A stretch of 64,000 nt of DNA from an uncultured Verrucomicrobiota bacterium (GCA_964541905.1 CAZIRU010000001.1:2870-66869), one strand, 5' to 3'; counted from the first letter of the stretch, positions 900 through 64,000 are shown. Made by a program: numbers and translations. Notes: a model not told the origin generated them from the letters alone.

Positions 900-2981
900 C
901 TAGAAATTCAGCCAGCGGAAGCGAAGGGTAAAACGCGTGTCGCTGTCGCGCGAGTCGTTGGTGCGGCGCTGGAGGCCGTATTGGAGCAGCCAGCCGCTGC
1001 GCAGACGCTGCTGGAGACCGTAGAAGGCGTCGCTAAGCTCGTGAAGCTCCACATCATAGGTCATGTCCGCAAAAAGCGTCAGACGATCCGTCAGCTTTTG
1101 GCTCAAAAAGAGCGCGTACTGGTGGATGTCGTCCTCCAAATAGCGCGAGGAGAAAGTCGCCGAACGATAGTCGCCATCGCGCAAGGTGGCGTAAAGACGG
1201 TGCTCCTGCCACTTTTGCTCGTCCCAGTTCAGACGCGCGAAAACCCCAAACGAAAGCCACGCGCAGGGAGACGCTTCGGAGAGAATGTAAAAGCTGTCCC
1301 AGCGCGGGTGCGCGTCCGCCGTCGTCGCGGGAGTCTCGAAATTGTAGTCCTGGTAGAGCTCGAGGGTCAGAAGCTCGCGGGTCGGAAAACCGCGGCCCTT
1401 GGGATTGCGCGTGAGGAGACTTTGCTTGAGGCCAAAACGCACGAGATTCAAAGAGTCGAGCTGGTCGGCATTGGCCATGTAAAAGAAATCGGTCGGGCGC
1501 AGATTGGTATCGAAGACGCGCGCGTCAATCGCGGGGATTTCGGCGGAACCAGCCGAGGCGCGGGGCATATAGCGATATTGCACGATCGGTTGGACGAGGT
1601 GCTTGAGGCCGTTGATCTCCCAAAGGGGGGCTTGCACGTCGTAGTTTTTAAAAAGGCTCCATTGGGAGTCGAAACCCAACATCCAAAGCCCCCGATCAAC
1701 CGAAGAGGCGGTGGACGTCGTTTCGTCGTAGTAGGTGTAGCGGCCCGAAACAACTGGCGTAAACTGCCACCAAGGTTTGAGCGCCGTCGGGCGATCGAAG
1801 GTCAGGATGCCATCGTAGCGATTGTAGTCGAGCGCCTCGCGTTCGCGGTGGGAGAAGGAATTGTAGAAGCTCCAGTATACACCCGTGTGGCCAAGCGCCG
1901 TAGGGAGGCGGTCAATGCGCAGCTCGGGGAGCTTTTCGGTGACGGAGTCGAAGTTGTTGGGATCGTAGCCGGCAAAGAGGCTCAAATAAGCGTCTTGGAG
2001 CGGCAGCACCGCCTCGACAAAGCTCTCGGGCGCTTGCGACCGGCCATAGGCACCCGGGCGGAAATCGCGCAAGACCTCGGAGTCGCTCCAGTACTGCGAC
2101 TGCGCGGTCAGCTCAACGCGCGAGAGGGTCTGCTTGTGCTTTAACTCCACAAAACCGCGCTCTTCGCCGATCGCAATATCGCGGACGTCCTCGCCGCGCT
2201 CGCCGCTATCCGAAATATAGCCGGTATCCACGGAGGTGGAGCTTGTCGGGGTCTTGTAGGCAACGCGCGGGCCCACGAGGAAGCCGCGCTTGGAGTAGTA
2301 GTCCAAGTTGGCGCCCACGCGAAGGCGTTCCGTGGCGGAGTAGAGGCTCTCGGTCCGCAGGAAAAGTCCGTTGCGGCCGCTGTGCCCCGCTTCGGTTTCG
2401 AATTCAAAGCTCTCGCGGTTGGGGACGCGGGCATTCAGGAAAGGCAGAGGCAAAAGCGGCACCGCCCCCGCCTTGAGCAAGGCCGCGCCCACGTTCACCC
2501 CCGTCGTGCGATCCCCCGGGCGCAAGGTCATTTTGGTGACGTAAAGATTGGGCTGGATGGAGCCTGTTTGCGACGTGTGCACCGTCGCTTGGCGGATGAC
2601 AAACTTGCCGGAAGTGCCGCTTATGTGCTTGCCGGTAATCATGTAGGGGAAAAAGCCCATGCGAAAGTCGGCGGCGGAAAATTGTTTGGTCGTCAAATCG
2701 TAAGACGCCTGCGCGGCTACCAGGCGCGACCCCTTCAAATTGAGCCGGACGTTGCCGGTGGCGGTGGCTTCGTTCTTTTCTTTGCTGAAGCGGATTTCGT
2801 CGGCGATGAGGGTCAGGTCTTCGTGGACAAAGGTCGCGTTTTGACGCGCCACAAGGGTATTGGTGATGCCATCGAACTCGATGGGCAGATCGGAAGAAAG
2901 ATTGGTTTGGGCCTGAAGGGCTGCAGAAAACGACAAAAACACCGCAAGAAACCGGTATGCTCGGAAATTCATAGGGGACAT
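900..2981 (-). CDS. lptD: LPS-assembly outer membrane protein LptD (OstA family)
   Basis: N-terminal signal peptide (LAVFLSFSAALQAQ), OstA-like N-domain (GNVRLNLKGSRLVAAQASYDL), long C-terminal region rich in aromatic/beta-strand residues; 693 aa. Confidence 0.65.
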   Translation of the reverse strand: MSPMNFRAYRFLAVFLSFSAALQAQTNLSSDLPIEFDGITNTLVARQNATFVHEDLTLIADEIRFSKEKNEATATGNVRLNLKGSRLVAAQASYDLTTKQFSAADFRMGFFPYMITGKHISGTSGKFVIRQATVHTSQTGSIQPNLYVTKMTLRPGDRTTGVNVGAALLKAGAVPLLPLPFLNARVPNRESFEFETEAGHSGRNGLFLRTESLYSATERLRVGANLDYYSKRGFLVGPRVAYKTPTSSTSVDTGYISDSGERGEDVRDIAIGEERGFVELKHKQTLSRVELTAQSQYWSDSEVLRDFRPGAYGRSQAPESFVEAVLPLQDAYLSLFAGYDPNNFDSVTEKLPELRIDRLPTALGHTGVYWSFYNSFSHREREALDYNRYDGILTFDRPTALKPWWQFTPVVSGRYTYYDETTSTASSVDRGLWMLGFDSQWSLFKNYDVQAPLWEINGLKHLVQPIVQYRYMPRASAGSAEIPAIDARVFDTNLRPTDFFYMANADQLDSLNLVRFGLKQSLLTRNPKGRGFPTRELLTLELYQDYNFETPATTADAHPRWDSFYILSEASPCAWLSFGVFARLNWDEQKWQEHRLYATLRDGDYRSATFSSRYLEDDIHQYALFLSQKLTDRLTLFADMTYDVELHELSDAFYGLQQRLRSGWLLQYGLQRRTNDSRDSDTRFTLRFRWLNF

Positions 2982-2997
2982 TTTGTCGGAAAGTGTT

Positions 2998-4074
2998 CTA
3001 CTTCACAAGCTCGAACGTTCCGTTTTTGACATTCCAAATTTGCCACGAAGCCCCCGAAGGCGGAAGCGCTGTCCCAGTTGCGAAGATTTGCAGGCCCTCA
3101 AGCGAACCCCAAAAATGTTCCTGACGCGTGCGGTCGAGCTCAAGGAGCAGATCGTCGGCCAGAAGCAGAGGCGCAAGCGAGAGCTTTTCGCGCAGGATTT
3201 GCAAAGACGCAAGCTTCAGCGCCAAAACAAGCGAGAACTTTTGGCCTTCCGAAGCGTAGGCGGACGCCGGATGGCCGCTCAAGAGAAGCTCGAAGGAGTC
3301 GCGCTGGGGGCCGTAAAGGGTGTGGCCAACGAGGTTCTCCTTGGCGCGGCCCGTGCGCCACTTCTCAGCAAGAGTGTCCAAAGGAGTGCTGGGAGTGTAA
3401 ATAAAAGAGGGAGCTTCGTCGCTGGGGGCGAAACGTGCATAGACGGACGGAAGTGCCGCCGAAAGTAGCTCCGTGGCGCGCGTACGGAAGCGGATAAGCG
3501 TGGAAGCTTCGGAGAGTAATTGCGCCTCGAAGGCATCGAGCTGCGCATGATCGGCGGCAGAAAGAGTCGAGTCGCGGCCCAAAATGCGATTGCGGGAACG
3601 GAGCGCCTCCATATAGCCTGCAAGCGCTTCGGCGTAGGGAGGGTGGAGCTGCGCCAGGAGACTGTCGATTTCGTCGCGGCGCGCCGAGGGGCCATCGTAA
3701 ATAAGCGCGCGGTCGGCCAAGCTCAAGGGCACGACCGGAAAGAGCCCCGCAAGCTCGCGAGGGGAACGCAGGGTCTTTTGATCGTGGCGCAACTCAAGCG
3801 AGTCGGCGGAAAGGCAAAGACCCACCGAAGTGGCGTGGAGCTTTTCGTGATCGAAAGTCGCGCGAAGCACCGTACGCGGGGCTCCCTGGGAGATAAGCGG
3901 CGCGCGTTGGTGAGTGCGAAAACTGCGCGCGGAGACGACGAACGCAATGGCCTCGAGGAGATTCGTTTTGCCCTGCGCGTTGGGCCCCAAGAAAAAATGC
4001 CGAGGGCCCTCGAAGGAAAGCTGCGCCGCCGGAATATTGCGGAAAGATTCAAGCTCGAGGGAAAGAAGGCGCAC
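2998..4074 (-). CDS. recF: DNA replication and repair protein RecF
   Basis: N-terminus MRLLSLELESFRNI with Walker A GPNAQGKTNLLEAI, typical RecF; 358 aa. Confidence 0.85.
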   Translation of the reverse strand: MRLLSLELESFRNIPAAQLSFEGPRHFFLGPNAQGKTNLLEAIAFVVSARSFRTHQRAPLISQGAPRTVLRATFDHEKLHATSVGLCLSADSLELRHDQKTLRSPRELAGLFPVVPLSLADRALIYDGPSARRDEIDSLLAQLHPPYAEALAGYMEALRSRNRILGRDSTLSAADHAQLDAFEAQLLSEASTLIRFRTRATELLSAALPSVYARFAPSDEAPSFIYTPSTPLDTLAEKWRTGRAKENLVGHTLYGPQRDSFELLLSGHPASAYASEGQKFSLVLALKLASLQILREKLSLAPLLLADDLLLELDRTRQEHFWGSLEGLQIFATGTALPPSGASWQIWNVKNGTFELVK

Positions 4075-7504: not shown

Positions 7505-8185
7505 ATGAAAATTGGCGGGCTTCAAAAGCTCTCTCTTATTGATTTCCCCGGACATCTCGCGGCGGTTGTCTTTACGCAGGGCTGCACGTGGAGGTGTCCC
7601 TTTTGCCATAACGCGGCACTGGTTGTGCCGGAGATGTTTGCGGCACCCATGAAGGAGGAGGAGGTTTTTGCTTTCTTGGAGTCGCGCAAGGGACAGCTGG
7701 ATGGAGTGGTTATTACGGGAGGCGAGCCCACGTTGCAGCCAGATTTGGGAGAGTTTCTCCAAAAGATCAAGGCCTTGGGCTATGCCGTAAAACTCGACAG
7801 TAACGGCGCTCTCCCGCAACGGTTGGAGGCGGTCTTGAAGCCTGAATGGGTGGATTATGTGGCGATGGACCTCAAGGCGGGACTTGCGCATTATGCGGAA
7901 GCCGTCGGAGTAAAAGTTGATACGCGTGAGGTTGAGCGTTCGATGGAAATCATCCGCAAAGCGGGAATCCCGTATGAGTTCCGCACAACGGTCGTGCCTG
8001 GGCTGCCGATTGACCCCGAAGAAGTAGCCCTCCTCTTGCGCCCCGGCGAAAAATTTTTCCTTCAGGCCTTCCGCGCAAGCGAAGGGGTGGCGGATGGACG
8101 TCTTAAGGCGGAACTGGACCCTTTTGCAAAAGGCGCCATGCTCAAAAAGCTTGAGTGTCGCGGACTGGAAGTGGCGTGGAGATAG
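7505..8185 (+). CDS. nrdG: Anaerobic ribonucleotide reductase activating protein (radical SAM)
   Basis: Radical-SAM CxxxCxxC motif CTWRCPFCHN; directly downstream of nrdD. Confidence 0.85.
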   Translation: MKIGGLQKLSLIDFPGHLAAVVFTQGCTWRCPFCHNAALVVPEMFAAPMKEEEVFAFLESRKGQLDGVVITGGEPTLQPDLGEFLQKIKALGYAVKLDSNGALPQRLEAVLKPEWVDYVAMDLKAGLAHYAEAVGVKVDTREVERSMEIIRKAGIPYEFRTTVVPGLPIDPEEVALLLRPGEKFFLQAFRASEGVADGRLKAELDPFAKGAMLKKLECRGLEVAWR

Positions 8186-8189
8186 AAAA

Positions 8190-8217
8190 GGGCCCACCAA
8201 AAATGATGGGCCCTTTT
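8190..8217. terminator. Bidirectional rho-independent terminator between nrdG and the convergent MCP gene
   Basis: GGGCCCA-(10 nt loop)-TGGGCCC followed by TTTT on plus strand; the reverse complement also ends in a T-run. Confidence 0.6.
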
Positions 8218-8251
8218 AAAGCGGGGGTCCCTTGCAGGCCCCCTTTGAGCA

Positions 8252-9880
8252 CTATTTCTTAGCCGTTTGGAAAGTAAGACGATCCTTCGCCTTGGGCTTG
8301 GCCGTAGCAGCGACCCTTGCCGAAGCGACCACTCTTGCGGCGGACGAGGTGGCCGAGGTGGCGTGCTCCTTGGATTTGCCACGGACGAGCTCCTGAAGCT
8401 GCTCGACGGTTTCGCGCAAGACCATCGCCTGAGAGTTGAGCTCTTCGGCGGCGGCCGCGCTTTCTTCCGCGCCGGAAGCGTTGGACTGCGTGACCGTTTC
8501 CATCTGGCTGACGGCTGTGCTGATTTGTCCAATGCCTTGGCTTTGCTCGCGGCTGGCTTCCGCGATCTGGGCCACTTGGGTATCCACTTGATGGACCTTG
8601 CTGACGATTTCTTCGAGCTTGGTCGAAACTTCTTTGGATTTTTCAACCACCGACTCCACGGCAGCTATCACCTTTTCGTTGGAAGCCACGCCATTGTCGG
8701 AACGCTGGACCGCCGTTTCGATCATTGCCGCAGTCTCTTTGGCGGCCTTAGCTGAGCGCTGGGCCAAATTGCGAACTTCGTCGGCCACGACCGCAAAGCC
8801 CGCACCAGCCTCCCCTGCCCGCGCCGCTTCTACGGCGGCGTTGAGGGCGAGAAGATTCGTCTGGAAGGCGATCTCATCAATAGTCTTAATGATGTTGGAA
8901 ATATCCTGACTGGCCTCTTTGATGGCGCCCATCGCCGTCTTCATCTCGGTGCTGGCCCCGCGAATAGCCTCGATCGAGCGCGACATCTCGGCCGTGCTTT
9001 GCGCCCCCGCCTCAGCTGCCTTGCGGGTGGCCTGCGCCACATCCTTGGTCTGCTGGGCCGTCTCGGCATTGCGCTCAGTCGTCGAGCTGATCTCGGTAAG
9101 AGAGGCGGAAGTCTCCTCAATGGAGGCCGCCTGTTCGCTGGCTCCCTCGGCAAGAGATTGCGACGAAGCCGAAACCTGATCGGCCGCAGCAGTCACCTGA
9201 GAAGCCCCTTCATCCAACGCTCCGGCAATGCGGCCCAACACCTTGTTGAGCTCGCGGGTGATAACGACCGCAAAAAAGATGCCCAAAACCAGCGAAATCA
9301 AACTGACAATAATTGTGGCAGTATTCGCGATAGTGGCCAAATGATCGGTATTCCCTGCGGATTTTTTGGCAAGGGTAAGATTTCGCGTGAGCATCTTGTC
9401 CATTTGCGCCATGTACTTTTCGTAGGCGACTTTGAGTGGTACCATAGCCGTCAGGGCCTCGGCGGTATTGCCCTGTTTCTGAGCCTCAATCACAACGGCC
9501 CGCGTGCGCGCGTATTCTGCGCGCAACTCCAGTAGCTCTTCAAAGTTCTTTTTATCCTCTGGATCGATAATGGCCTTTTCGTAGTTCTCATAGTCCTCGG
9601 TCAGGGTTTCGGCGATCTGCGCCATAATCTTTTCCTGTTCCGCGATATTGGTCTTATCACCATTCACCAGAATGCGCATGACTGCAATATGCGCATCGGG
9701 CAACATGCCGGTGATATTCGACATGGCAACGGCGCTGGGCAGATAGGTCTTGTCAAGGTCTGAGGCCTCGCGAGAGATCTTGCCAAGTGAGATGAGAGAA
9801 ACGGCCGCCAAAACGGCGACGAGCACAAGCACCGTGGCAAAGCCGAAGGTGATTCTTTTTCCAATAGTCCAGTTTTTCAT
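8252..9880 (-). CDS. Methyl-accepting chemotaxis protein
   Basis: N-terminal TM segment, HAMP region, highly Ala/Ser/Glu-rich coiled-coil signalling domain ([32 protein letters not shown]); 542 aa. Confidence 0.85.
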
Positions 9881-34176: not shown

Positions 34177-36666
34177 CTAAAACAGTCCCATTTGCGCCTC
34201 GTCGCGCTTTTCGGATTTGGCTTTGGGAGCTTTGGCGGTCGCTTCGAGCGTCTCCAGCAGTTGATTAGCCCGCGCGATAATCGACGCAGGCAGCCCCGCC
34301 AACTGCGCCACATGCACGCCGTAGCTGCGATCGGCCGTACCCGGGACAACTTGGCGCACAAATATAATCTTATTGCCCCATTCTTTGACGGCGACCGTAT
34401 AGTTACGCAATCTTGGCAAGCTCTTCTCAAGCCGCGTCAGCTCATGATAATGCGTGGCAAAAAGCGTCCGAGACCCTTCGCGCGGGTGCGCATGCAGATA
34501 CTCCACACACGCCCACGCAATCGAGAGACCGTCATAAGTGCTTGTCCCTCTGCCAATTTCGTCCAAAACGATCAGGCTTTTTGGGGTCGCCGAACGTAAA
34601 ATATACGCCGTCTCGGTCATCTCGACCATGAAGGTCGATTCGCCTCGCGCGAGGGCATCCGACGAGCCAATCCGCGAGAAAATCCGATCCGCCAGCCCTA
34701 TTACGGCAGATTTTGCCGGAATAAATGACCCCACCTGCGCCATGAGCACTATGAGCGCTACCTGGCGAATATAAGTACTTTTCCCGGCCATATTCGGCCC
34801 GGTAATAAGCAAAATTTGCTCATTTTCCGACGCCATCCGCGTATCATTGGGCACGAAACGCTCATTTCCGTCCTCGCTTGCCGCAAGCGCCTGCTCCACA
34901 ACCGGATGGCGCCCCTCAACAATCTCCAAGCGCGCATCTTCGGTCAAGATGGGCCGCACATAGTTCCACTTGCGCGCATTAAAGGCAAAGGCGCAAAGCA
35001 AATCGCACCAGCTCAGGGCCGTTGCGGTTTGGCGGAGCGTATCGGCATGGGCAACGACCTCCGCCACAAGCCCCTCGAAAAGTTCAATTTCGCGCCGGAT
35101 GGCATCTCCCTCGGCCGAAAGGATCTCCTTTTGGCGCTCCTGCAACTCGGGAGTCACAAAACGCTCGCCATTCACCGTGGTTGAGCGCCGGATGTAATCG
35201 GTTGGGACACGCGCGAGGTTGGCCTTGGTAATTTCGATAAAAAACCCAAAATTCTGGTTGTAGCGCACCTTGAGGCTTTTTATCCCCGTGCGCTCCTGCT
35301 CCTGACGTTCCAGCTCGGCAATCCAAATCTTGTGATTGGCCGAGAGCGATTTGAGACGGTCCAGCTCGGCATCGAAGCCCGGACGAATGGCCCCACCCTC
35401 CGCAAGCGCATTATTGGGTTCCTCTTCCAGCGCCGCGCCCAGCCGCGTACAAAGAGCGGCATGCGGGTCTATGGCGCTCGAAATCCAGCCGACCGCCCCC
35501 GCCTCAAAGCGCTCCACCTGGGCCTTCAGCCGCGGAAGCGCCCGCAAAGTATCGCGCACGGCAGCCAGCTCCCGTGGAGTGCGCAGACGATTTTGCAGCC
35601 GTCCCAAAATCCGCTCCAGGTCGCGCAAAAGCGAAAGCAATTCGCGTAACTCGCGCAAGCCTTCGGGCTGAGAGGCAAAAGCCTCGACTGCCGCAAGTCG
35701 CGCCAAAAGAGTCGCCTTGTCACAGGAGGGCGCGCGCAACGTTCGCTCCAAAAGACGCCCGCCCGCAGCGGTCATGGTGGCGTCCATCGCATTTATGAGC
35801 GACCCCTGCCGGCCGCCATCGAGCGCGCGGAAAATTTCGAGCTGGCGCGCCGTATTGGCATCCAAAAGCAGCCGATTTTCGAAGCGGTGGAGCTTGAGCT
35901 CGCAAAGATTGGCCGGAGCCGCGCAAAGAGCCTGTTTGGCGTAAGAATAAAGGGCACCCGCAGGCCCAATCGCAGGATGGTCGTCGGGGAGCCCAAAACC
36001 CTTCAAAGTCGCAACGTGAAGGGCTTCGCACAAAATTCGCTTGGCGCCCAGAGGCTCGAAAAAGCTCTCTGGCAGCTCCGAGACCGAAAGCGAGGGCAGA
36101 TTTTCGATGAGTCGCTCCTTGATACCGGCGGGCAGGCCCGTTTCGGGGATGATGAGCTCGGCAGGCTGAAGCAGCGTCAAATAGGTTAGAAAGTCGTCAA
36201 TCGAGGCATGCGCGGCAGCCGCCCACTCGCCCGTTGAAAGCTCCATCCAGCTGGCCGCAAGGGTAAGTCCCGTGGAGCTTTTAGAGACAGAAAGAGCCAA
36301 AAGATATTGATTGTGAGAGGCTTCGAGATGTTCGGCATTTATCGCAGTGCCAGGGGTAAAAACGCGCGTCAGGGCGCGCTGGACAAGTTTGCCCGGACGC
36401 GCCTCTTCGAGCTGGTCGCAAACCGCAACCTTTTTGCCTGAATCAAGAAGCCTCTTGATGTAGCCCTCGGCGGCGTGGTGGGGAATACCGGCCATGGGGC
36501 GCTCGTGGCGGGCGGTGAGGGTCAGGCCGAGGATATTAGCCGCCATGCGCGCATCATCGTCGAACATCTCAAAAAAGTCCCCAAGCCTGAAAAGCAGGAG
36601 CGTTCCGGGCGCCAATTTGGCCTTAATCTCCTTGTATTGCCGGAACATGGGGGTGTCGTCGGACAT
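34177..36666 (-). CDS. mutS: DNA mismatch repair protein MutS
   Basis: Mismatch-binding N-domain (TPMFRQYKEIKAKLAPGTLLLFRLGDFFEMFDDDA), Walker A GPNMAGKSTYIRQ, Walker B LIVLDEIGRGTSTYDG. Confidence 0.95.
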   Translation of the reverse strand: MSDDTPMFRQYKEIKAKLAPGTLLLFRLGDFFEMFDDDARMAANILGLTLTARHERPMAGIPHHAAEGYIKRLLDSGKKVAVCDQLEEARPGKLVQRALTRVFTPGTAINAEHLEASHNQYLLALSVSKSSTGLTLAASWMELSTGEWAAAAHASIDDFLTYLTLLQPAELIIPETGLPAGIKERLIENLPSLSVSELPESFFEPLGAKRILCEALHVATLKGFGLPDDHPAIGPAGALYSYAKQALCAAPANLCELKLHRFENRLLLDANTARQLEIFRALDGGRQGSLINAMDATMTAAGGRLLERTLRAPSCDKATLLARLAAVEAFASQPEGLRELRELLSLLRDLERILGRLQNRLRTPRELAAVRDTLRALPRLKAQVERFEAGAVGWISSAIDPHAALCTRLGAALEEEPNNALAEGGAIRPGFDAELDRLKSLSANHKIWIAELERQEQERTGIKSLKVRYNQNFGFFIEITKANLARVPTDYIRRSTTVNGERFVTPELQERQKEILSAEGDAIRREIELFEGLVAEVVAHADTLRQTATALSWCDLLCAFAFNARKWNYVRPILTEDARLEIVEGRHPVVEQALAASEDGNERFVPNDTRMASENEQILLITGPNMAGKSTYIRQVALIVLMAQVGSFIPAKSAVIGLADRIFSRIGSSDALARGESTFMVEMTETAYILRSATPKSLIVLDEIGRGTSTYDGLSIAWACVEYLHAHPREGSRTLFATHYHELTRLEKSLPRLRNYTVAVKEWGNKIIFVRQVVPGTADRSYGVHVAQLAGLPASIIARANQLLETLEATAKAPKAKSEKRDEAQMGLF

Positions 36667-36726
36667 AGGAAAGAGCGTAACAAATTAAGGGGCGGGAGTA
36701 AAGGAAAAGAGAGGGAGAATATTACC

Positions 36727-37488
36727 TTAGTTTGAATTTTGGAGGATCTGTTTCTTATAGAAATAGTCTTTTAAAAATGAATCCGAAACGTCTCTTTCTT
36801 CAAACATATAGATGCGCTGAGATGCCTGTTTGGCTAATTCCCTATTCAACTGACAAATAATTGTCGTTTGATTCTTGAAAACAATAGGCTCGTCTGTCTT
36901 AACTGCAATAAAAGCCTCCTTAGGCCCTAGCGGCAGTATAATCCGACATTTTGTGGCAAGTAAATCATTTGGCTTAAAGATAAGAGGATCATCGCCAATA
37001 ATAAGCCGATGCTTGCTTTTTCTGAAATCAAAAAAGCAAAACGCAAATGGCATCAGATCTTCTATGTTCTTCTCGTTAATAAGCTCTTTCAATTGATATT
37101 GCGAAAGTTTCTTTATTTGCTCAGCTGTAAGCATCGGAAGTCCTCTTAAATATTTTTCTCTAAGAATTTTTAATTTAGAGGGGTTTCTTAGCAACATATA
37201 CAAAACAAATCCAGCCCACATCTTTTTCTCTTCACCGAAATTCTTTATCTCAACAAGTCCATCTTTTCTCAACGACCTAATCTTTTCCAAAATCTTAGCC
37301 GCCTTGTCATCTAATTCTTTAAAGAAACCTTCAGTACTCCCATACAGATCTTCTTCAAAACAAATACCCTTGGGCCCCTTAGGTAATGATTTCCCATAGT
37401 CTTTATGGAAAATGCAGATGTTATTTCCTTTCGCTGGGTTTCGCCAGCTTTCTAGTATAAATCTTGGAATATAATGATCTTTGGCCAT
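36727..37488 (-). CDS. DUF4238-like protein on a low-GC islet (candidate single-gene anti-phage defense)
   Basis: Low-GC ORF (about 35% GC by eye) in a ~60% GC background; N-terminus MAKDHYIPRFILESW matches my recollection of the DUF4238 HY-x-P-x-F signature; Lys/Glu/Ile-rich composition typical of foreign genes. Confidence 0.5.
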   Translation of the reverse strand: MAKDHYIPRFILESWRNPAKGNNICIFHKDYGKSLPKGPKGICFEEDLYGSTEGFFKELDDKAAKILEKIRSLRKDGLVEIKNFGEEKKMWAGFVLYMLLRNPSKLKILREKYLRGLPMLTAEQIKKLSQYQLKELINEKNIEDLMPFAFCFFDFRKSKHRLIIGDDPLIFKPNDLLATKCRIILPLGPKEAFIAVKTDEPIVFKNQTTIICQLNRELAKQASQRIYMFEERDVSDSFLKDYFYKKQILQNSN

Positions 37489-37641
37489 CTCTCTATTGTA
37501 TCACACCTTTTAAAGTTTTCAAAAAACAAGAGTTTCGGAGCTGCTGAGATCCTCCGCGCTTACGCAAAAAACAGCACACCCAAGAAGGAGGTCTCTCGCG
37601 GGTAAGCTGATCTGATTTTCTAAAGGCTACCGGAAAGCGAA

Positions 37642-38697
37642 TTATCCTTCGTCCTCGTAACCCTCGGCGGCTCGCGCGTTCGGGTGATCGGCCTTCGGTT
37701 TTTCCATGCTCGGGCGGGCGTAAAGGCGCTCATGGGGGGCTTCGGGGAAAACTTCGTCGGCGCGGGGCAAGAACCAGTCCTTCCCTAATTGTAAAAGCTC
37801 GTCGGGCGTCCGAGCTTCGCGCATGCACTTGAGAAAAATCCCATTCGGATCAACCGAAAGCCCAAGGAAATTCAAGTAGCCCTTCATGGGGCCTATGGAG
37901 GCGCAATTTTTTACAATCCAACAGAAGTAGTCGTAGGCATCGGCAAAGGTTGACGCCTTGAAGGCGCGGCCTTCACGAAGCGCGGCAGCTTTGGCGAAAA
38001 TCCACGGATAGCGAATCGCCGCACGCCCCACCGAAACACCCCAAGCCCCCGTTTCTTTTACAAGTGTAAAACCTTGCGATGCCGTCTGGATGTCGCCATT
38101 GAGGATAACCGGGCACGGAGCCGCCGCAACAATTTGGCGCGCCAACTCGAAACGTACAGGGGCGTGGTAGCCATCCGCAACGGTCCGCAGGTGCACCGTA
38201 CAGAAGTCAACCTGATATTTATCAAGGAGTTGCAAAACACCCTGCCAAGCGTCCGGCTCGCGGAAACCCAGACGCAATTTGACGCTCAAGGTCAAAGGAG
38301 GTGCTACCGCCTCGCGCAAGGCCGCAAGGATGCGCTCAACCGTCTCCAGCTCGCGCAAAAGGCCGCCACCTACATTCTGTTTGTAAATTTTCGGAGCCGG
38401 ACAACCTAGGTTGAGATCAACGCCAGAAACAGGCAGCTTTTGCAGGAATTCAGCGCCTTTCTTAAAATATTCCGGTTCGCGGCCAATCAATTGAGCAATG
38501 ATGCGACATTTTGTCCCATACTCCTCGATGAAGGAAAGCCAGTCCTTATCCCACGCGGTATGCTCGTGGACCCGAACGTATTCGATGTGAAAGAGTTCTG
38601 GAGCGCCAACTTGCGCGATATAGCGCCCGAGGCGCACAAAATCGCACATCGGCGCCAAAGAAAAAGGACTTTGCAGATCGAAGGGCGGCGGGCGCAT
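37642..38697 (-). CDS. tRNA-dihydrouridine synthase (Dus family)
   Basis: TIM-barrel Dus motifs SLAPMCDFVRLG and DLNLGCPAPKI; start at ATG 38697. Confidence 0.8.
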   Translation of the reverse strand: MRPPPFDLQSPFSLAPMCDFVRLGRYIAQVGAPELFHIEYVRVHEHTAWDKDWLSFIEEYGTKCRIIAQLIGREPEYFKKGAEFLQKLPVSGVDLNLGCPAPKIYKQNVGGGLLRELETVERILAALREAVAPPLTLSVKLRLGFREPDAWQGVLQLLDKYQVDFCTVHLRTVADGYHAPVRFELARQIVAAAPCPVILNGDIQTASQGFTLVKETGAWGVSVGRAAIRYPWIFAKAAALREGRAFKASTFADAYDYFCWIVKNCASIGPMKGYLNFLGLSVDPNGIFLKCMREARTPDELLQLGKDWFLPRADEVFPEAPHERLYARPSMEKPKADHPNARAAEGYEDEG

Positions 38698-38736
38698 TAG
38701 ACAAAGCTTAGACGAAAAAAACGATAGCGGCAATTC

Positions 38737-56867: not shown

Positions 56868-56963
56868 CGCGCCTCCAAAGCAATCTCCAAGCCCCTCCTC
56901 TTGCCGCCTCCGTGCGCGCAACCTTGACTTTCTATCTCGCCTATGCAATAATAGCTCTTCTTG

Positions 56964-57037
56964 CGGGCTGTAGCGTAGCCTGGTAGCGCGCTTGCATGGG
57001 GTGCAAGAGGTCGCGAGTTCGAATCTCGCCAGCCCGA
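56964..57037 (+). tRNA. tRNA-Pro (anticodon GGG)
   Basis: Acceptor CGGGCTG/CAGCCCG, D-loop AGCCTGGTA, anticodon stem CTTGC/GCAAG with loop ATGGGGT, T-arm GCGAGTTCGAATCTCGC; TTGACT-17-ATAATA promoter-like element upstream. Confidence 0.8.
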
Positions 57038-57052
57038 AAATCTTTCATCTCT

Positions 57053-57439
57053 ATGCCCAAAGAAATAAAGCTCGTCATTGAAATTAAAAGGTCAGCCTCA
57101 GACGTATTTCAGTTTACAACCAATCCGCAAAATACGCCTCTTTGGATAGATTCTATCGTAGTTGAAAAAGCTTCAGAGTTCCCGCCCAAAACAGGAACTG
57201 TTTACAAAAACAAAGGCAGCGAGGATGTTTGGAGTACCTATGTTGTTGTAGATTGCCAGCCCGATAAGCTCTTTGAGCTGGCCATGACAAATTCAGACTA
57301 TCACGTCCGCTACACTTATACGCCATTGGACGCAGAAACCACTTTATTGGAATATTTCGAGTGGGTGGATCAAGGAGAGCTTCAAGCCCCCTTCACTAAC
57401 GAAACACTACAAAAGTTAAAGAAAGTAATTGAAGCATAG
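57053..57439 (+). CDS. SRPBCC-family small protein
   Basis: 128-aa ORF starting immediately after tRNA-Pro; mixed beta/alpha pattern consistent with SRPBCC/polyketide-cyclase-like fold; lower GC than core genes; assignment by fold-level resemblance only. Confidence 0.4.
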   Translation: MPKEIKLVIEIKRSASDVFQFTTNPQNTPLWIDSIVVEKASEFPPKTGTVYKNKGSEDVWSTYVVVDCQPDKLFELAMTNSDYHVRYTYTPLDAETTLLEYFEWVDQGELQAPFTNETLQKLKKVIEA

Positions 57440-57669
57440 CAAGCTTTCGAATCTGGGGCCTTGAGCTTTTTCACGGATGGAAAATAGGCATTGACGAGCC
57501 GCCTTCTGCGCGACAGAATATCAGCCATGGGAAAACTTAGCGATTTACTCTCTCCAAATAAAAGCTGGGGTGTCCAGACTGTGCAAGATTTTGTGCGCCT
57601 GCCCGGGCTCATCACTCCGCTTATGTTTGCTGCTCCGAGCTTGCGCCGCTCACTATAAACGATTTTGTA

Positions 57670-57942
57670 ATGCTCGATTTGCTCCATGCGGAAGCACATC
57701 GCATCATTCTTTGGTGTGGAACCTCCGGCCAAGAAAGCGCCGCAATTGCCAACATTGATAGGGCTATCGGCAAATATTCCTTCGGCGGCTCAAGACCAAG
57801 CGATGAAATATTAAAAGTTTCTCGCTGGCTGGCTTGCAAAGATCCTAATGAGGCCAAGGCGTTCTGGGCCGACTTGTTCGCCAAAAACAGAGTAAACTTG
57901 AACACCCTTGAGGAGGACGTTGCCGCGAGAATCGCATCTTAG
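57670..57942 (+). CDS. Hypothetical protein, possibly 3-prime part of a frameshifted gene
   Basis: 90-aa ORF; an upstream 44-codon ORF (57527-57658) in another frame may be its disrupted N-terminus; overlapping minus-strand ORFs make the call uncertain. Confidence 0.25.
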   Translation: MLDLLHAEAHRIILWCGTSGQESAAIANIDRAIGKYSFGGSRPSDEILKVSRWLACKDPNEAKAFWADLFAKNRVNLNTLEEDVAARIAS

Positions 57943-57988
57943 TCCTCAAGCTCGACTTCGCTGGGGACTTCCCCTACCCTAGGATGAA

Positions 57989-58603
57989 ATGCCTCTCGTC
58001 CAGCAGCTCAGCCCCTCCAAAAAGCTTTCCATGCGCTTGGGAGTGCTTCTTTTCCGACTTCTGCTTTTGACTTTGCGCGTAAGGCTCTCCGAGAACGCCC
58101 TCGCCTTTAAAAATTCGAATCCCCGCCGATCTCTTATCCTCTTGTGGCACAATCGCTTAGCTTTGGCCCTCGCGGCTTTTTCGAGCCACGGCCCAGCGCT
58201 TCCCTTAACAGGACTCGTGAGCGCCTCGGCGGATGGTGCCATCCTCGATTTTGTCATGCGCGCCTTTGGCATCGAGACGGCCCGCGGCTCCTCTTCGCGT
58301 CGCGCCGTCGAGGCCACGCGGGAGCTTTTCGAGGCACTCGAACAAGGCCGCAACATTGTTATTACCCCCGACGGCCCTCGAGGCCCCTGCTATCAAGTCA
58401 AGCCGGGCGCCGCACAAATCGCCTCGGAACATGTCGAGCAAACCTACATTTTGGGCCTCAAAGTTTCGCGCGCGTGGAAGCTGCGCTCGTGGGATGGCTT
58501 TCTTGTGCCCAAACCCTTTGCGACGGTGACCGTCGATATTGCCGCCGCAGGCGAACGCACGCCCGAAGCGCTCAAAAACGCCCTCGACCAGCTCAATAAC
58601 TGA
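57989..58603 (+). CDS. DUF374/lysophospholipid acyltransferase-like protein
   Basis: Motifs LILLWHNRLALA and NIVITPDGPRGP resemble the DUF374 family often linked to Kdo-lipid A genes. Confidence 0.5.
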   Translation: MPLVQQLSPSKKLSMRLGVLLFRLLLLTLRVRLSENALAFKNSNPRRSLILLWHNRLALALAAFSSHGPALPLTGLVSASADGAILDFVMRAFGIETARGSSSRRAVEATRELFEALEQGRNIVITPDGPRGPCYQVKPGAAQIASEHVEQTYILGLKVSRAWKLRSWDGFLVPKPFATVTVDIAAAGERTPEALKNALDQLNN

Positions 58604-58654: not shown

Positions 58655-59077
58655 CTAGAATACCGGACGGAAAACAACCTTTGACCCCGCTTTGGCCTGG
58701 ACATTGCTGCCCTGCTGCCAAACTTGGTCGTTGAGGAGGACCTTGAATTCGAGATTCTCTTTACTGTCGCTCGTCCATACCCACGTGCGGTTTTGATATT
58801 CCATCGGCTGGCTTTTCTCCCAGCTTAAGCCGGCCCCCTGCCCGCGGATGCTGAGGCTATTGCCATAGCCCACGTCGATCTGGGCAACCACTTGGGTGGC
58901 GCCGGAAGTTGACTTGGAGGCTTTCGGCGCAAACGGGTTCATTTTGGAAAAGTTGGACTTCTGCGATTGCGGTTTTTCGGGCAGTTCGGCAACAGCAATA
59001 GAGCTTTGGCAGGAGGATCCTGCTTGGGAGGCGCAGCAAGAAGATTTCTTGCTATTGGATTTTTTAGGAGCTGGCAT
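58655..59077 (-). CDS. Hypothetical protein with Lys/Ser-rich N-terminus
   Basis: N-terminal low-complexity basic region (PKKSNSKKSS...) and Trp-containing beta-rich C-terminal half; no family recognised. Confidence 0.3.
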   Translation of the reverse strand: MPAPKKSNSKKSSCCASQAGSSCQSSIAVAELPEKPQSQKSNFSKMNPFAPKASKSTSGATQVVAQIDVGYGNSLSIRGQGAGLSWEKSQPMEYQNRTWVWTSDSKENLEFKVLLNDQVWQQGSNVQAKAGSKVVFRPVF

Positions 59078-59178
59078 AAGATTCTATTGGGTTTATCGTC
59101 TTTTAAACACCCCTACGGCCAATTTGGCAAGCGATTTCGAGAGATTTTCTTTGGGAAGTTCCGACCGGAGGGGGCTAT

Positions 59179-59412
59179 TTAGAGCTTCTTGTATAAGTTT
59201 GACACAGTCGTATTTAAAACTTTTGCAAAAACAACAACCTCTCTATCAAGCACGTTTCTGAATTGAGATTCTATTTGGGCCATCGTATCGCGAGTTATAT
59301 CCAGCCCATTTAGCTGGCATTTTACAGCCAACTCGCGCTGCGTAAGCCCAATAGCAATTCTATGCTTGCGGATTATCGGGCCGACAATATTTCGGTCTTT
59401 TTTCTTTTTCAT
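59179..59412 (-). CDS. XRE-family helix-turn-helix transcriptional regulator
   Basis: HTH_XRE pattern IRKHRIAIGLTQRELAVKCQLNGLDITRDTMAQIE; 77 aa; AT-rich context. Confidence 0.6.
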   Translation of the reverse strand: MKKKKDRNIVGPIIRKHRIAIGLTQRELAVKCQLNGLDITRDTMAQIESQFRNVLDREVVVFAKVLNTTVSNLYKKL

Positions 59413-59492
59413 AGCGATTCGCCAATGTTATCAGAGAATCACTATTGACTTGTGAACGTGGAATCACACAATGGAATTACTTCCAGCGAAGT

Positions 59493-59621
59493 ATGAGTTT
59501 CATAACGGCCATAAAATGTATCGCCTCTATATTGTTTTGGAGCTTTATTGTGCTCCTAATTATAGCGGTACTTTTGTTTCCTTTCTATCTGATAGGATAT
59601 TTTCACAAGGACGATGATTGA
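59493..59621 (+). CDS. Putative small hydrophobic peptide (42 aa) divergent from the XRE regulator
   Basis: MSFITAIKCIASILFWSFIVLLIIAVLLFPFYLIGYFHKDDD: one TM helix with acidic tail; not in ORF track (below 60 aa); could be a chance ORF in AT-rich DNA. Confidence 0.25.
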   Translation: MSFITAIKCIASILFWSFIVLLIIAVLLFPFYLIGYFHKDDD

Positions 59622-59652
59622 CTTGTTTTTGGGGCCGACCCACGCTTTGCTT

Positions 59653-59741
59653 ACCAGCCGCATTGACAAGATCTCCCCTTTGCCTTTAGGCTATTTATCT
59701 CTTTAGCGGGGTCTTAGCTTTCGTTGGTAGAGCGACTGGTT
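59653..59741 (+). repeat. Degenerate partial duplicate of tRNA-Ala upstream region plus 5-prime half
   Basis: About 89 nt matching 59827-59914 with roughly 6 differences; includes TTGACA and the tRNA 5-prime half through the anticodon stem (GGGGTCTTAGCT...GAGCGACTGGTT). Confidence 0.7.
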
Positions 59742-59881
59742 GATTCGGCCCGCCGGCCTCACCCCTTCGGGGCGCTCCGCTCACGCTGCGCGTCTGATGG
59801 CGTACTCGCCATCATCGCCAAGGCTCACCAGCCGCATTGACAAGACCGCCCCTTTGCCTTTAGGCTATTCATCTCTTTAGA

Positions 59882-59954
59882 GGGGTCTTAGCTCAGTTGG
59901 TAGAGCGACTGGTTCGCAATCAGTAGGTCAGGGGTTCGAATCCCCTAGGCTCCA
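59882..59954 (+). tRNA. tRNA-Ala (anticodon CGC)
   Basis: Acceptor GGGGTCT/AGGCTCC with the G3:U70 pair characteristic of tRNA-Ala, D-arm GCTCAGTTGGTAGAGC, anticodon loop TTCGCAA, T-arm AGGGGTTCGAATCCCCT. Confidence 0.85.
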
Positions 59955-59964
59955 CAGAGCTTCT

Positions 59965-60363
59965 CTACACTTCCAGCAGGATTTTCTCGACCTTCTTCGC
60001 TTTGTTGCAGGTTCGTTCTACGCCCCTCGTCGCCTCATTGAAGCTTCTCTGATCTATTCCGAGGGCCTTCACCCAATCCGAAACACGCTTGAAGGGAATT
60101 TTACGGTCTAATGCTGCCGGAAGATGAATGCAGCTCGAACGCCCACCCGCTTGTACGGAAGGCAATTTACCAGCCAGCTTGTCCGGCAGCTGCAACCTTA
60201 CACCCTTCCCTGCTGGAATAATCGCAACACCGAGGCTTCCCAAAATTTGTTGCACTCTTTCTCGCTTTATTTGAATGGGTAAGATATGCACTATTGTAAA
60301 GACAATTCTAGAGCTTTTTAGAAAAATTCTCTCAAATTCTACCCTACCCTCTCCGCAAGCCAC
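59965..60363 (-). CDS. Hypothetical protein adjacent to tRNA-Ala
   Basis: 132-aa ORF, no motif recognised; 25-nt overlap with the glyQS start makes its true start uncertain. Confidence 0.25.
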   Translation of the reverse strand: MACGEGRVEFERIFLKSSRIVFTIVHILPIQIKRERVQQILGSLGVAIIPAGKGVRLQLPDKLAGKLPSVQAGGRSSCIHLPAALDRKIPFKRVSDWVKALGIDQRSFNEATRGVERTCNKAKKVEKILLEV

Positions 60364-62888: not shown

Positions 62889-64000
62889 ATGACAGAAGTT
62901 GAAACCGAAGCGCCCCTTACAGATTCCCTTATTCCTCGATACAGCACACCCGCCGAAGTAAAGCCTGAGGATGCTTTTGTTGGCGATCTTTTCAACCGAA
63001 AACCTTTAGCAGAACGGCTTATCCATCTTATCGGAAGAATGAAAGATGGGTTTGTACTCTCGGTTGATTCAGGCTGGGGTTCAGGGAAAACGTATTTTGC
63101 CAGACACACGGTTGCTTTGATGAAAAAACAACCAGAGGATAAAAAAGACACCAAGACTAAAGTTGTCTATCTCGATGCTTTCAAAAATGATTTTTTAGAA
63201 GAACCGTTTTTGCTTATAGCGGCGGAGATTTTAAAAGCCATCGGTAAAAATGATGAAGCCGAAAAGGCTATTGGACGCATTATTCGTTCAGGGATGTTAG
63301 TTACTGGAAAAGAAATAGGATTACAGCTCGTCAAACATTGGACTGGCGCCGATCTTCAAGATGCTATTGATAAAGTTACAGATCAGATAGAAAGAGACAA
63401 AGATATAGCCACACAACTCAAAGAAAGATACGAAGCCGCAACATCAACCATCACGGATTTCAAAACCGAACTCAACAAGGCGCTGCAAGGCAAACAGCTT
63501 GTTATTTTCATTGATGAACTTGACCGCTGCAAACCCCCATTCTCCGTAAAACTTCTTGAGTATCTCAAGCATCTCTTCGACGTTAAGGGTCTTGTCTTCG
63601 TTTTAATGATTAATCGAGAAGCCCTCGTCAGTTCTATCGCAGGCGTTTACCACCTCGACAAACCAGCCGCCAGCGAGTATCTAAACAAGTTTATAAATCT
63701 AGATTTCAAGATCCCTGTAATTACTACAAGCAACTATAAAAACAAAGGTTCTGATGATTATATTGCTTTCTGTAGAGCTTTTTTTCAAAGAAATTTCAAA
63801 CAGGACACCCAGGCAAAACAGCTAGATCATTTTATACAATCCTTTTCATATTTTTGTGAGTATTATAAACTTCCTCTTAGAAAAATAGAGACGGGAGCAA
63901 TAAACTGGATCACAATCACTCCGCGTTTCGAAGAGACCAATAAGGGCGTTTGTGAAGACATTTGCTTTCGCCGAATAAGTCTATGTTCTTGGTTTGTCGC
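62889..64000 (+). CDS. KAP-family P-loop NTPase, 3-prime truncated by window end
   Basis: Open frame from ATG 62889 to the window end (370 codons, no stop; not in ORF track). Walker A VDSGWGSGKT, Walker B LVIFIDELDRC; low GC (about 40%). Confidence 0.6.
   Translation, partial: MTEVETEAPLTDSLIPRYSTPAEVKPEDAFVGDLFNRKPLAERLIHLIGRMKDGFVLSVDSGWGSGKTYFARHTVALMKKQPEDKKDTKTKVVYLDAFKNDFLEEPFLLIAAEILKAIGKNDEAEKAIGRIIRSGMLVTGKEIGLQLVKHWTGADLQDAIDKVTDQIERDKDIATQLKERYEAATSTITDFKTELNKALQGKQLVIFIDELDRCKPPFSVKLLEYLKHLFDVKGLVFVLMINREALVSSIAGVYHLDKPAASEYLNKFINLDFKIPVITTSNYKNKGSDDYIAFCRAFFQRNFKQDTQAKQLDHFIQSFSYFCEYYKLPLRKIETGAINWITITPRFEETNKGVCEDICFRRISLCSWFV

Follow-up and report, generated by a model that had tools for sequence, protein, structure and literature searches.

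A divergent DUF4238 protein encoded by an AT-rich single-gene islet between dus and mutS: a candidate anti-phage defence gene

Introduction

DUF4238 (domain of unknown function 4238, PF14022) is among the few validated single-gene anti-phage systems for which there is no recognisable domain, solved homologue, or mechanism. Rousset et al. (2022) described a single DUF4238 gene from a P2-prophage hotspot of Escherichia coli TA007 (plasmid pFR101), which confers strong resistance to T7 and whose molecular function is unknown (PMC9122126). AbiC, AbiG, AbiH, and AbiN have been grouped with this gene, under the name Rst_DUF4238, as single-protein defence genes of unclassified fold (bioRxiv 10.1101/2024.10.26.620412). 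Here, a distant DUF4238 gene is described that lies between dus and mutS in a stretch of 64,000 nucleotides from an uncultured Verrucomicrobiota bacterium (GCA_964541905.1 CAZIRU010000001.1:2870-66869), hereafter called the window. This copy leaves the state of knowledge on the mechanism unchanged. A first-pass annotation of the window, made from the sequence alone, had named DUF4238 as a single-gene anti-phage system. The published T7 resistance bears this out, whereas the phage-satellite origin that it named for the validated gene has to be replaced by the P2 prophage hotspot.

A compact and very divergent DUF4238 protein

Judged from its sequence, the window protein is a genuine, very divergent member of DUF4238. 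It matches the PF14022 profile along its full length, with residues 3 to 227 placed on profile positions 1 to 276 of 281, and exceeds the gathering threshold clearly (E = 1.3e-25, 90.8 bits versus a cut-off of 27), so that the family assignment made in the first-pass annotation is secured. Against 5.8 billion proteins, a word-index search returns the protein itself only. In an exhaustive phmmer search (1.84 billion representatives), 257 relatives are found at E ≤ 1e-3 and 17 at E ≤ 1e-10, the best of them with 37% identity, and all of those that were rescanned are DUF4238 proteins. In a Pfam scan of 33 family members at E ≤ 1, DUF4238 is the only family to recur. The window protein is without a match in NCBIfam and PHROGs, and neither a signal peptide nor a transmembrane segment is evident in its 253 residues.

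The core of the family is built by the N-terminal motif HHYxPxFYLKxW, D60, W91, F94, R101xP103, (S)D166xP168, LPLxP186-189, F193, and N215. The window protein keeps every family-invariant residue (H5, D60, R101, P103, D166, P168, P186, P189, and N215), and the first histidine of the HH pair is substituted with an aspartate, likewise in several members of its subfamily. The possible catalytic run that had been pointed out in the first-pass annotation is thus half right: its “GDDP” stretch holds the invariant D166 and P168, whereas “FCFFDF” is a hydrophobic β-strand in which the conserved tryptophan is replaced. The closest relatives make up a short subfamily (238 to 271 aa) without the 40- to 60-residue helical insert of the typical members (~295 aa), and the same central insert is lacking in the compact window protein.

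The relation to the validated protein becomes visible at the level of profiles. The E. coli TA007 protein (309 aa), which scores 718 bits on the PADLOC model PDLC03000 “DUF4238-Pers”, is aligned with the family profile by HHalign at a probability of 97.6% (E = 3e-12, 12% identity, 242 columns). In a 23-sequence alignment that includes the validated protein, H5, R101, P103, D166, P168, P186, and N215 are invariant, and D60 is a glutamate in the E. coli protein. Because the profile comparison and the invariant residues agree, both proteins are read as homologues that are very distant and have a polar core in common.

The AlphaFold2 model of the window protein reaches a predicted local distance difference test score (pLDDT) of 72.3 and a predicted template modelling score (pTM) of 0.75 with a 19-sequence alignment. 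For the typical member P0151, the values are 84.3 and 0.82, with a core above 90. Both models take on a mixed α/β arrangement of an N-terminal hairpin and long helices, followed by a small sheet.

A foreign gene in a variable dus-mutS slot

The gene stands out from its surroundings by its guanine-cytosine (GC) content. The sliding profile falls to 0.34-0.41 over ~36600-37650 and lies at 0.53-0.64 on both sides; the DUF4238 open reading frame (ORF) has a GC of 0.358, compared with 0.583 for mutS, 0.551 for dus, and 0.549 for the whole window. Among 43 non-overlapping window ORFs of at least 200 aa, it is the sole compositional outlier (0.358 versus 0.563, z = -9.6), and its GC at third codon positions is 0.366 (z = -6.5). 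The first-pass annotation had described a low-GC islet at 36667-37641 with exactly one ORF (36727-37488, minus strand, 253 aa), at “35% versus 60%” GC, between two conserved housekeeping genes on the same strand. The ORF is as described, the GC figures are about right for the ORF versus its immediate flanks, the comparison with the other ORFs places the dip far beyond chance, and the flanks mutS and dus, both on the minus strand, are confirmed by Pfam. The outline of the block needs correction: the interval is AT-rich overall (GC 0.377), but its part from 37520 to 37641 has a GC of ~0.5. At 80-nt resolution, the low-GC stretch is confined to ~36700-37520 (~0.82 kb), with windows of 0.29-0.45 inside and at least 0.49 outside. 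This stretch holds no second ORF, and no small antitoxin gene adjoins the DUF4238 gene as in type II toxin-antitoxin systems. The spacer of 37523-37641 is probably host sequence.

The host appears from its sequence to belong to Verrucomicrobiota near Opitutales, as homologues of its Dus at ~40% identity carry the names Opitutaceae, Opitutales, or Verrucomicrobiota and the best MutS matches point in the same direction. A scan of genome contigs with MutS reached at best 46% identity, in metagenome-assembled genomes of the Planctomycetes-Verrucomicrobia-Chlamydiae group and others, and was saturated on universal motifs and thus uninformative on synteny. The neighbours of the islet are syntenic with contigs of metagenomic relatives, whose Dus is 54-68% identical and in which the order BFN-dus-(slot)-mutS is kept while the content of the slot varies. 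Five such loci (L082, L083, L086, L087, and L088) were compared. The slot is 45 bp in L088, a gap of 448-466 bp with an ORF of 69-70 aa in L082 (8239-8448) and L083 (1279-1491), and a gap of 466 bp with a homologous 104-aa ORF (8087-8401) in L086. This small ORF has a native GC of 0.51-0.54 and sub-threshold winged-helix/helix-turn-helix (HTH) matches; it is absent from L088, and no remnant of it was found in the window. None of the five loci carries a DUF4238 gene. The comparison of dus-mutS regions proposed in the first-pass annotation thus finds the slot empty or filled with the HTH-like ORF, never with DUF4238. In DNA alignments with the relatives, homology stops at the dus stop codon and restarts at the mutS ATG.

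The foreign GC, the preserved dus-mutS synteny of relatives that never hold DUF4238, and the breaks in homology at the dus stop and the mutS start together make it almost certain that the gene was acquired horizontally. On the same comparison, the dus-mutS spot is variable in this lineage, and a “hotspot” is suggested by the five loci. The only other contig with this exact gene, L001 from Logan, matches the window at 100% identity and hence represents the same genome and no independent occurrence. A search for a strain that lacks the islet found none.

How the gene arrived is not marked by known integration features. As stated in the first-pass annotation, no integrase is present in the neighbourhood; other mobile-element genes are likewise absent from the syntenic region, and attachment (att) repeats are lacking at the boundaries. 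The same annotation had seen no flanking repeat, yet the islet is bracketed by a 15-nt imperfect direct repeat, GGGCGGG(A/C)GTAAAGG, with 14 of 15 positions matching, a value that is reached by 1 of 300 shuffles. Its interpretation as an att site or target-site duplication was rejected, as the dus-side copy lies within conserved coding sequence of native GC, off the compositional boundary. A displaced dus 3′ end was discarded as well: the sequence beyond the mutS-side copy shows no resemblance to it. The positions are collected in Table 1.

Two further observations concern the 3′ side of dus. In L087, whose Dus is the most similar one (68%), a 179-aa ORF (2771-3310) comes after dus instead of mutS. 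This ORF has a GC of 0.456 versus 0.578 for dus and no Pfam or PADLOC match, and native-GC genes for secreted-looking proteins come next; it could represent a further insertion of foreign DNA on the same 3′ side of dus. Moreover, the C-terminal tail of Dus after the conserved ...ARPSMEKPK (window 37642-37711) has another length and another sequence in each of the relatives, and in the window it carries a 16-residue acidic extension, ADHPNARAAEGYEDEG.

Table 1. Features of the DUF4238 islet and its flanks, in window coordinates
Feature	Position	Strand	Basis
Imported low-GC block (promoter, ORF, and ~25 nt 3′ tail)	36700..37520		80-nt GC windows; outlier status of the ORF
DUF4238 gene, 253 aa, intact, N-terminus MAKDHYIPRFILESW	36727..37488	-	PF14022 full-length match
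Sigma-70-like promoter	37495..37522	-	10/12 consensus matches and extended -10 TG
Pyrimidine-rich 60-nt spacer, DUF4238 stop to mutS start, GC 0.433	36667..36726	-	Sequence, GC
Spacer 3′ of dus, near-native GC	37523..37641	-	GC 0.49-0.54; unalignable with relatives
mutS, conserved flank	34177..36666	-	MutS domains I-V (Pfam); syntenic in L082, L086, and L088
dus (tRNA-dihydrouridine synthase), conserved flank	37642..38733	-	PF01207, E = 3.7e-38
Direct repeat copy A, GGGCGGGAGTAAAGG, at the border of the low-GC block towards mutS	36690..36704		14/15 match
Direct repeat copy B, GGGCGGGCGTAAAGG, within conserved dus coding sequence (LYARP codons)	37712..37726		14/15 match

Expression signals

The promoter-like site upstream of the gene lies inside the low-GC block and consists of TTGAAA, a spacing of 16 nt, and (TG)TACAAT. 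The predicted -10 element stops 6 nt short of the ATG, where the sequence reads ...TGTGATACAATAGAGAGATG, and no Shine-Dalgarno sequence precedes the start codon. Because the -10 element abuts the ATG and a Shine-Dalgarno sequence is lacking, a leaderless mRNA is predicted. The arrangement was also considered as a trait of the short subfamily and rejected, since L107 and L109 have leaders with a GGAGG-type Shine-Dalgarno sequence. On the minus strand, no terminator-like site is found in the 60-nt spacer between the DUF4238 gene and mutS, so transcriptional read-through into mutS is possible. In L082 and L083, the sequence GATACAAT occurs as well, there behind a terminator-like hairpin that lies downstream of dus.

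Contexts and mobility of the family

Elsewhere, DUF4238 genes are found next to defence and mobility genes. On pTiL51_94, the order is AbiEi/AbiEii, DUF4238, SIR2, and the cyclic-oligonucleotide-based anti-phage signalling system (CBASS), which is a textbook defence island. L089 contains a tyrosine integrase, a CAP12-type Toll/interleukin-1 receptor (TIR) protein, and MucR, and resolvase, Ymh, DUF2971, Bro-N, and HSDR_N are seen around the genes of L092 and L093. In L091, ParD/ParE lies directly upstream and ends inside the DUF4238 start, in a region that is otherwise housekeeping; BrnT/BrnA lies ~1 kb upstream in L094. By tblastn, homologues with 22-27% identity are found on 29 alphaproteobacterial plasmids, and distant relatives occur on six viral contigs of IMG/VR. 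A phage-encoded homologue of the window protein itself was not found by tblastn.

In two unrelated loci, L089 (2082-2537) and L096 (NZ_AP018666.1, 5153-5632), the gene immediately upstream of DUF4238 is divergently oriented and encodes a regulator of the ROS/MucR family. MucR proteins silence AT-rich foreign genes in alphaproteobacteria, and the adjacency may reflect control of an AT-rich cassette.

A metagenome scan for the short subfamily yields six loci (L104-L109) at 31-33% identity, in which the gene has a GC of 0.34-0.40 whatever the GC of the host (0.39-0.55). Two integrase genes are present in L104, an integrase fragment in L109, and a DUF3800 gene in L106; L107 shows nothing telling. 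Two pairs among these loci are informative on mobility. Positions 7951-8741 of L107 and 7951-8741 of L109 are 86.6% identical over exactly 791 bp, which comprise the gene with 38 bp upstream and 6 bp downstream, and their flanks are unrelated. Similarly, L104 (314-1058) and L106 (772-1513) are 78% identical over 745 bp. Both pairs have only a gene-sized segment in common, which is direct evidence that the subfamily moves as gene-sized cassettes, equal in size to the low-GC block of the window and with no recombinase inside the common segment. In L108 (31-783), the reading frame is interrupted by an in-frame stop between WAQYL and AQLVR, which marks a pseudogene or a sequencing error.

Proposed function and alternative explanations

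Taken as a whole, the following explanation is given an even chance. An AT-rich single-gene cassette of ~0.82 kb was gained horizontally and lodged in the dus-mutS spacer, bringing its own predicted promoter that abuts the start codon and probably produces a leaderless mRNA. The product, a compact, cytosolic DUF4238 protein of 253 aa, would act alone, without a partner gene, against phages or mobile elements, in that it both senses the infection and serves as the effector, probably by aborting the infection. H5, D/E60, R101, D166, and N215 would form a catalytic or ligand-binding pocket within a previously unsolved fold, and the activity of this pocket would most plausibly be that of a metal-dependent hydrolase or transferase acting on nucleic acid or a nucleotide. 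An anti-invader role is likely because the family has a validated member, the polar core is conserved, and relatives lie in defence and mobile contexts; argued in this way by analogy, the defence role of the window protein is slightly favoured. The enzymatic nature of the pocket, which is read from the H/D-E/R/D/N set, is proposed more tentatively and falls somewhat short of an even bet.

Several results weaken the case for a defence role. The window protein has no match in a PADLOC search at E ≤ 10, including DUF4238-Pers, and the defence-profile check suggested in the first-pass annotation thus comes out against it. BLASTP between the window protein and the validated protein is nonsignificant (E = 12), and their identity is ~15% in the multiple alignment. 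At this distance, the defence role is not transferable by similarity alone. Furthermore, the gene lies in neither a prophage or satellite hotspot nor a defence island, its flanks being housekeeping genes. The DUF4238-Pers model also misses the closest relative, P0002, and the typical member P0152; its reach is confined to proteins closely related to the one from E. coli, and consequently defence annotation overlooks most of the family.

It can also be asked whether the gene has any current role. It could be a neutral or decaying passenger, left as the last gene of a degraded integrative element or introduced through homologous recombination at the conserved dus and mutS flanks. The bare surroundings, with no integrase, partner gene, or mobile-element gene nearby, fit this explanation, as do the integrases and integrase fragments beside subfamily copies elsewhere, the in-frame stop of L108, taken as a sign that such genes decay, and the restriction of the exact gene to one genome. 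However, the ORF is intact over 253 codons although it is AT-rich, where random stops are frequent, all family-invariant residues are kept, and the gene is still immediately preceded by a strong promoter-like element. A passenger is therefore considered unlikely, though with an appreciable chance. The complete toxin-antitoxin pairs beside some relatives (ParD/ParE in L091, BrnT/BrnA in L094, AbiEi/AbiEii on pTiL51_94) could instead hint at a solitary toxin or addiction module. Such a protein would arrest growth, would usually have an antitoxin as partner or be kept in check by a host factor, and would stabilise the DNA in which it lies. But these pairs are toxin-antitoxin systems in themselves, the cassettes of the window and of L107/L109 hold one gene only, an unopposed toxin would not persist, and the validated member acts without a partner gene and with no reported toxicity; a toxin is improbable on these grounds.

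The gene occupies the exact slot of the HTH-like ORF that is conserved in L082, L083, and L086, and with no terminator before mutS, its promoter may drive mutS. Both points would suit a host-adapted accessory factor that replaces the HTH-like ORF of the relatives or modulates mutS expression or DNA repair. Neither sequence nor predicted fold relates the protein to the HTH ORF, however, its homologues occur in many unrelated neighbourhoods and never again beside mutS or dus, and its composition is foreign, which leaves a host factor very improbable. An extended form of the cassette explanation goes further than the defence role proposed above. Here, the short DUF4238 proteins would be minimal (~250 aa) enzymes with an unseen fold, circulating as self-expressing cassettes of ~0.8 kb that insert between conserved genes without a recombinase of their own; dus-mutS would be a lineage-specific exchange slot, and the promoter would read into mutS and couple the gain of a defence gene to the expression of mismatch repair. 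This combination is offered as a speculation and is rather improbable.

That a DUF4238 gene of high AT content occupies a variable slot will hardly surprise a specialist. The islet illustrates that AT-rich, gene-sized DUF4238 cassettes can land between housekeeping genes, outside of defence islands. As a minimal form that keeps only the invariant H/D/R/D/N core, the compact subfamily of ~250 aa lends itself well to structure determination and mutagenesis. Should the window protein give no phage protection, this would be a warning against extending the label “defence” to all of PF14022.

Other features of the window

Beyond dus, as seen from the islet, lie a BFN-domain gene and tRNA-Val. The neighbours of the islet are housekeeping genes (methylmalonyl-CoA mutase, RluA-type pseudouridine synthase, cell-wall hydrolase, BFN nuclease, YkuD, methyl-accepting chemotaxis protein, and ATP-binding cassette permease).

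A second low-GC gene (62889-64000, plus strand, local GC 0.28-0.45) runs off the window end and encodes a KAP-family P-loop nucleoside triphosphatase (PF07693, E = 6.5e-37). It matches the PADLOC candidate defence system PDC-S20 (E = 5e-69, 232 bits), with weaker matches to PifA and QatA. This other AT-rich defence candidate, at ~25 kb from the DUF4238 islet, is counted in favour of the explanation proposed above. Moderately low-GC patches (0.37-0.49) with short ORFs only are present at 56900-58000 and 58950-60000, beside tRNA-Pro (56964-57037) and tRNA-Ala (59882-59955).

Comparison with known systems

The short DUF4238 subfamily (P0002, P0004-P0008; L104-L109) is 25-37% identical to the window protein over the full length and has the motifs KDHYxPxFYLKxW, LRxPE, ITSDNPLIF, ILPLxP, and INxE in common with it; on both sides, the genes are AT-rich single genes. 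Within the subfamily, the window protein diverges the most, with a best match of 37%, G164 in place of the usual serine, and a phenylalanine in place of the conserved β-strand tryptophan. The starts of the subfamily genes are led by Shine-Dalgarno sequences, whereas the promoter abuts the ATG in the window copy, and several of the relatives adjoin integrases, unlike the window copy.

Similar to AbiC, AbiG, AbiH, and AbiN, the window gene is a stand-alone, AT-rich, horizontally mobile gene whose product has no recognisable domain and no known mechanism; a sequence relationship to these proteins is not detected. With regard to the location, the enteric mutS-rpoS region next to mutS, which is polymorphic between strains, offers a parallel, as strain-specific foreign DNA is placed between conserved genes beside mutS. 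It differs from the window in phylum, partner gene (rpoS versus dus), and cargo.

The closest validated counterpart is Rst_DUF4238 of DefenseFinder, or DUF4238-Pers (PDLC03000) of PADLOC: both are PF14022, single-gene, and without an obligatory partner. The validated protein and the window protein have the same invariant residues plus an acidic residue at position 60, and both genes are AT-rich accessory genes in variable slots. They differ in size, with 309 aa for Rst_DUF4238 and 253 aa for the window protein, which lacks the central helical insert, and in location, with a prophage hotspot in the one case and two housekeeping genes of a Verrucomicrobia-like chromosome in the other. The window DUF4238 thus adds a new, divergent member to a known family of single-gene defence systems rather than a new kind of system.
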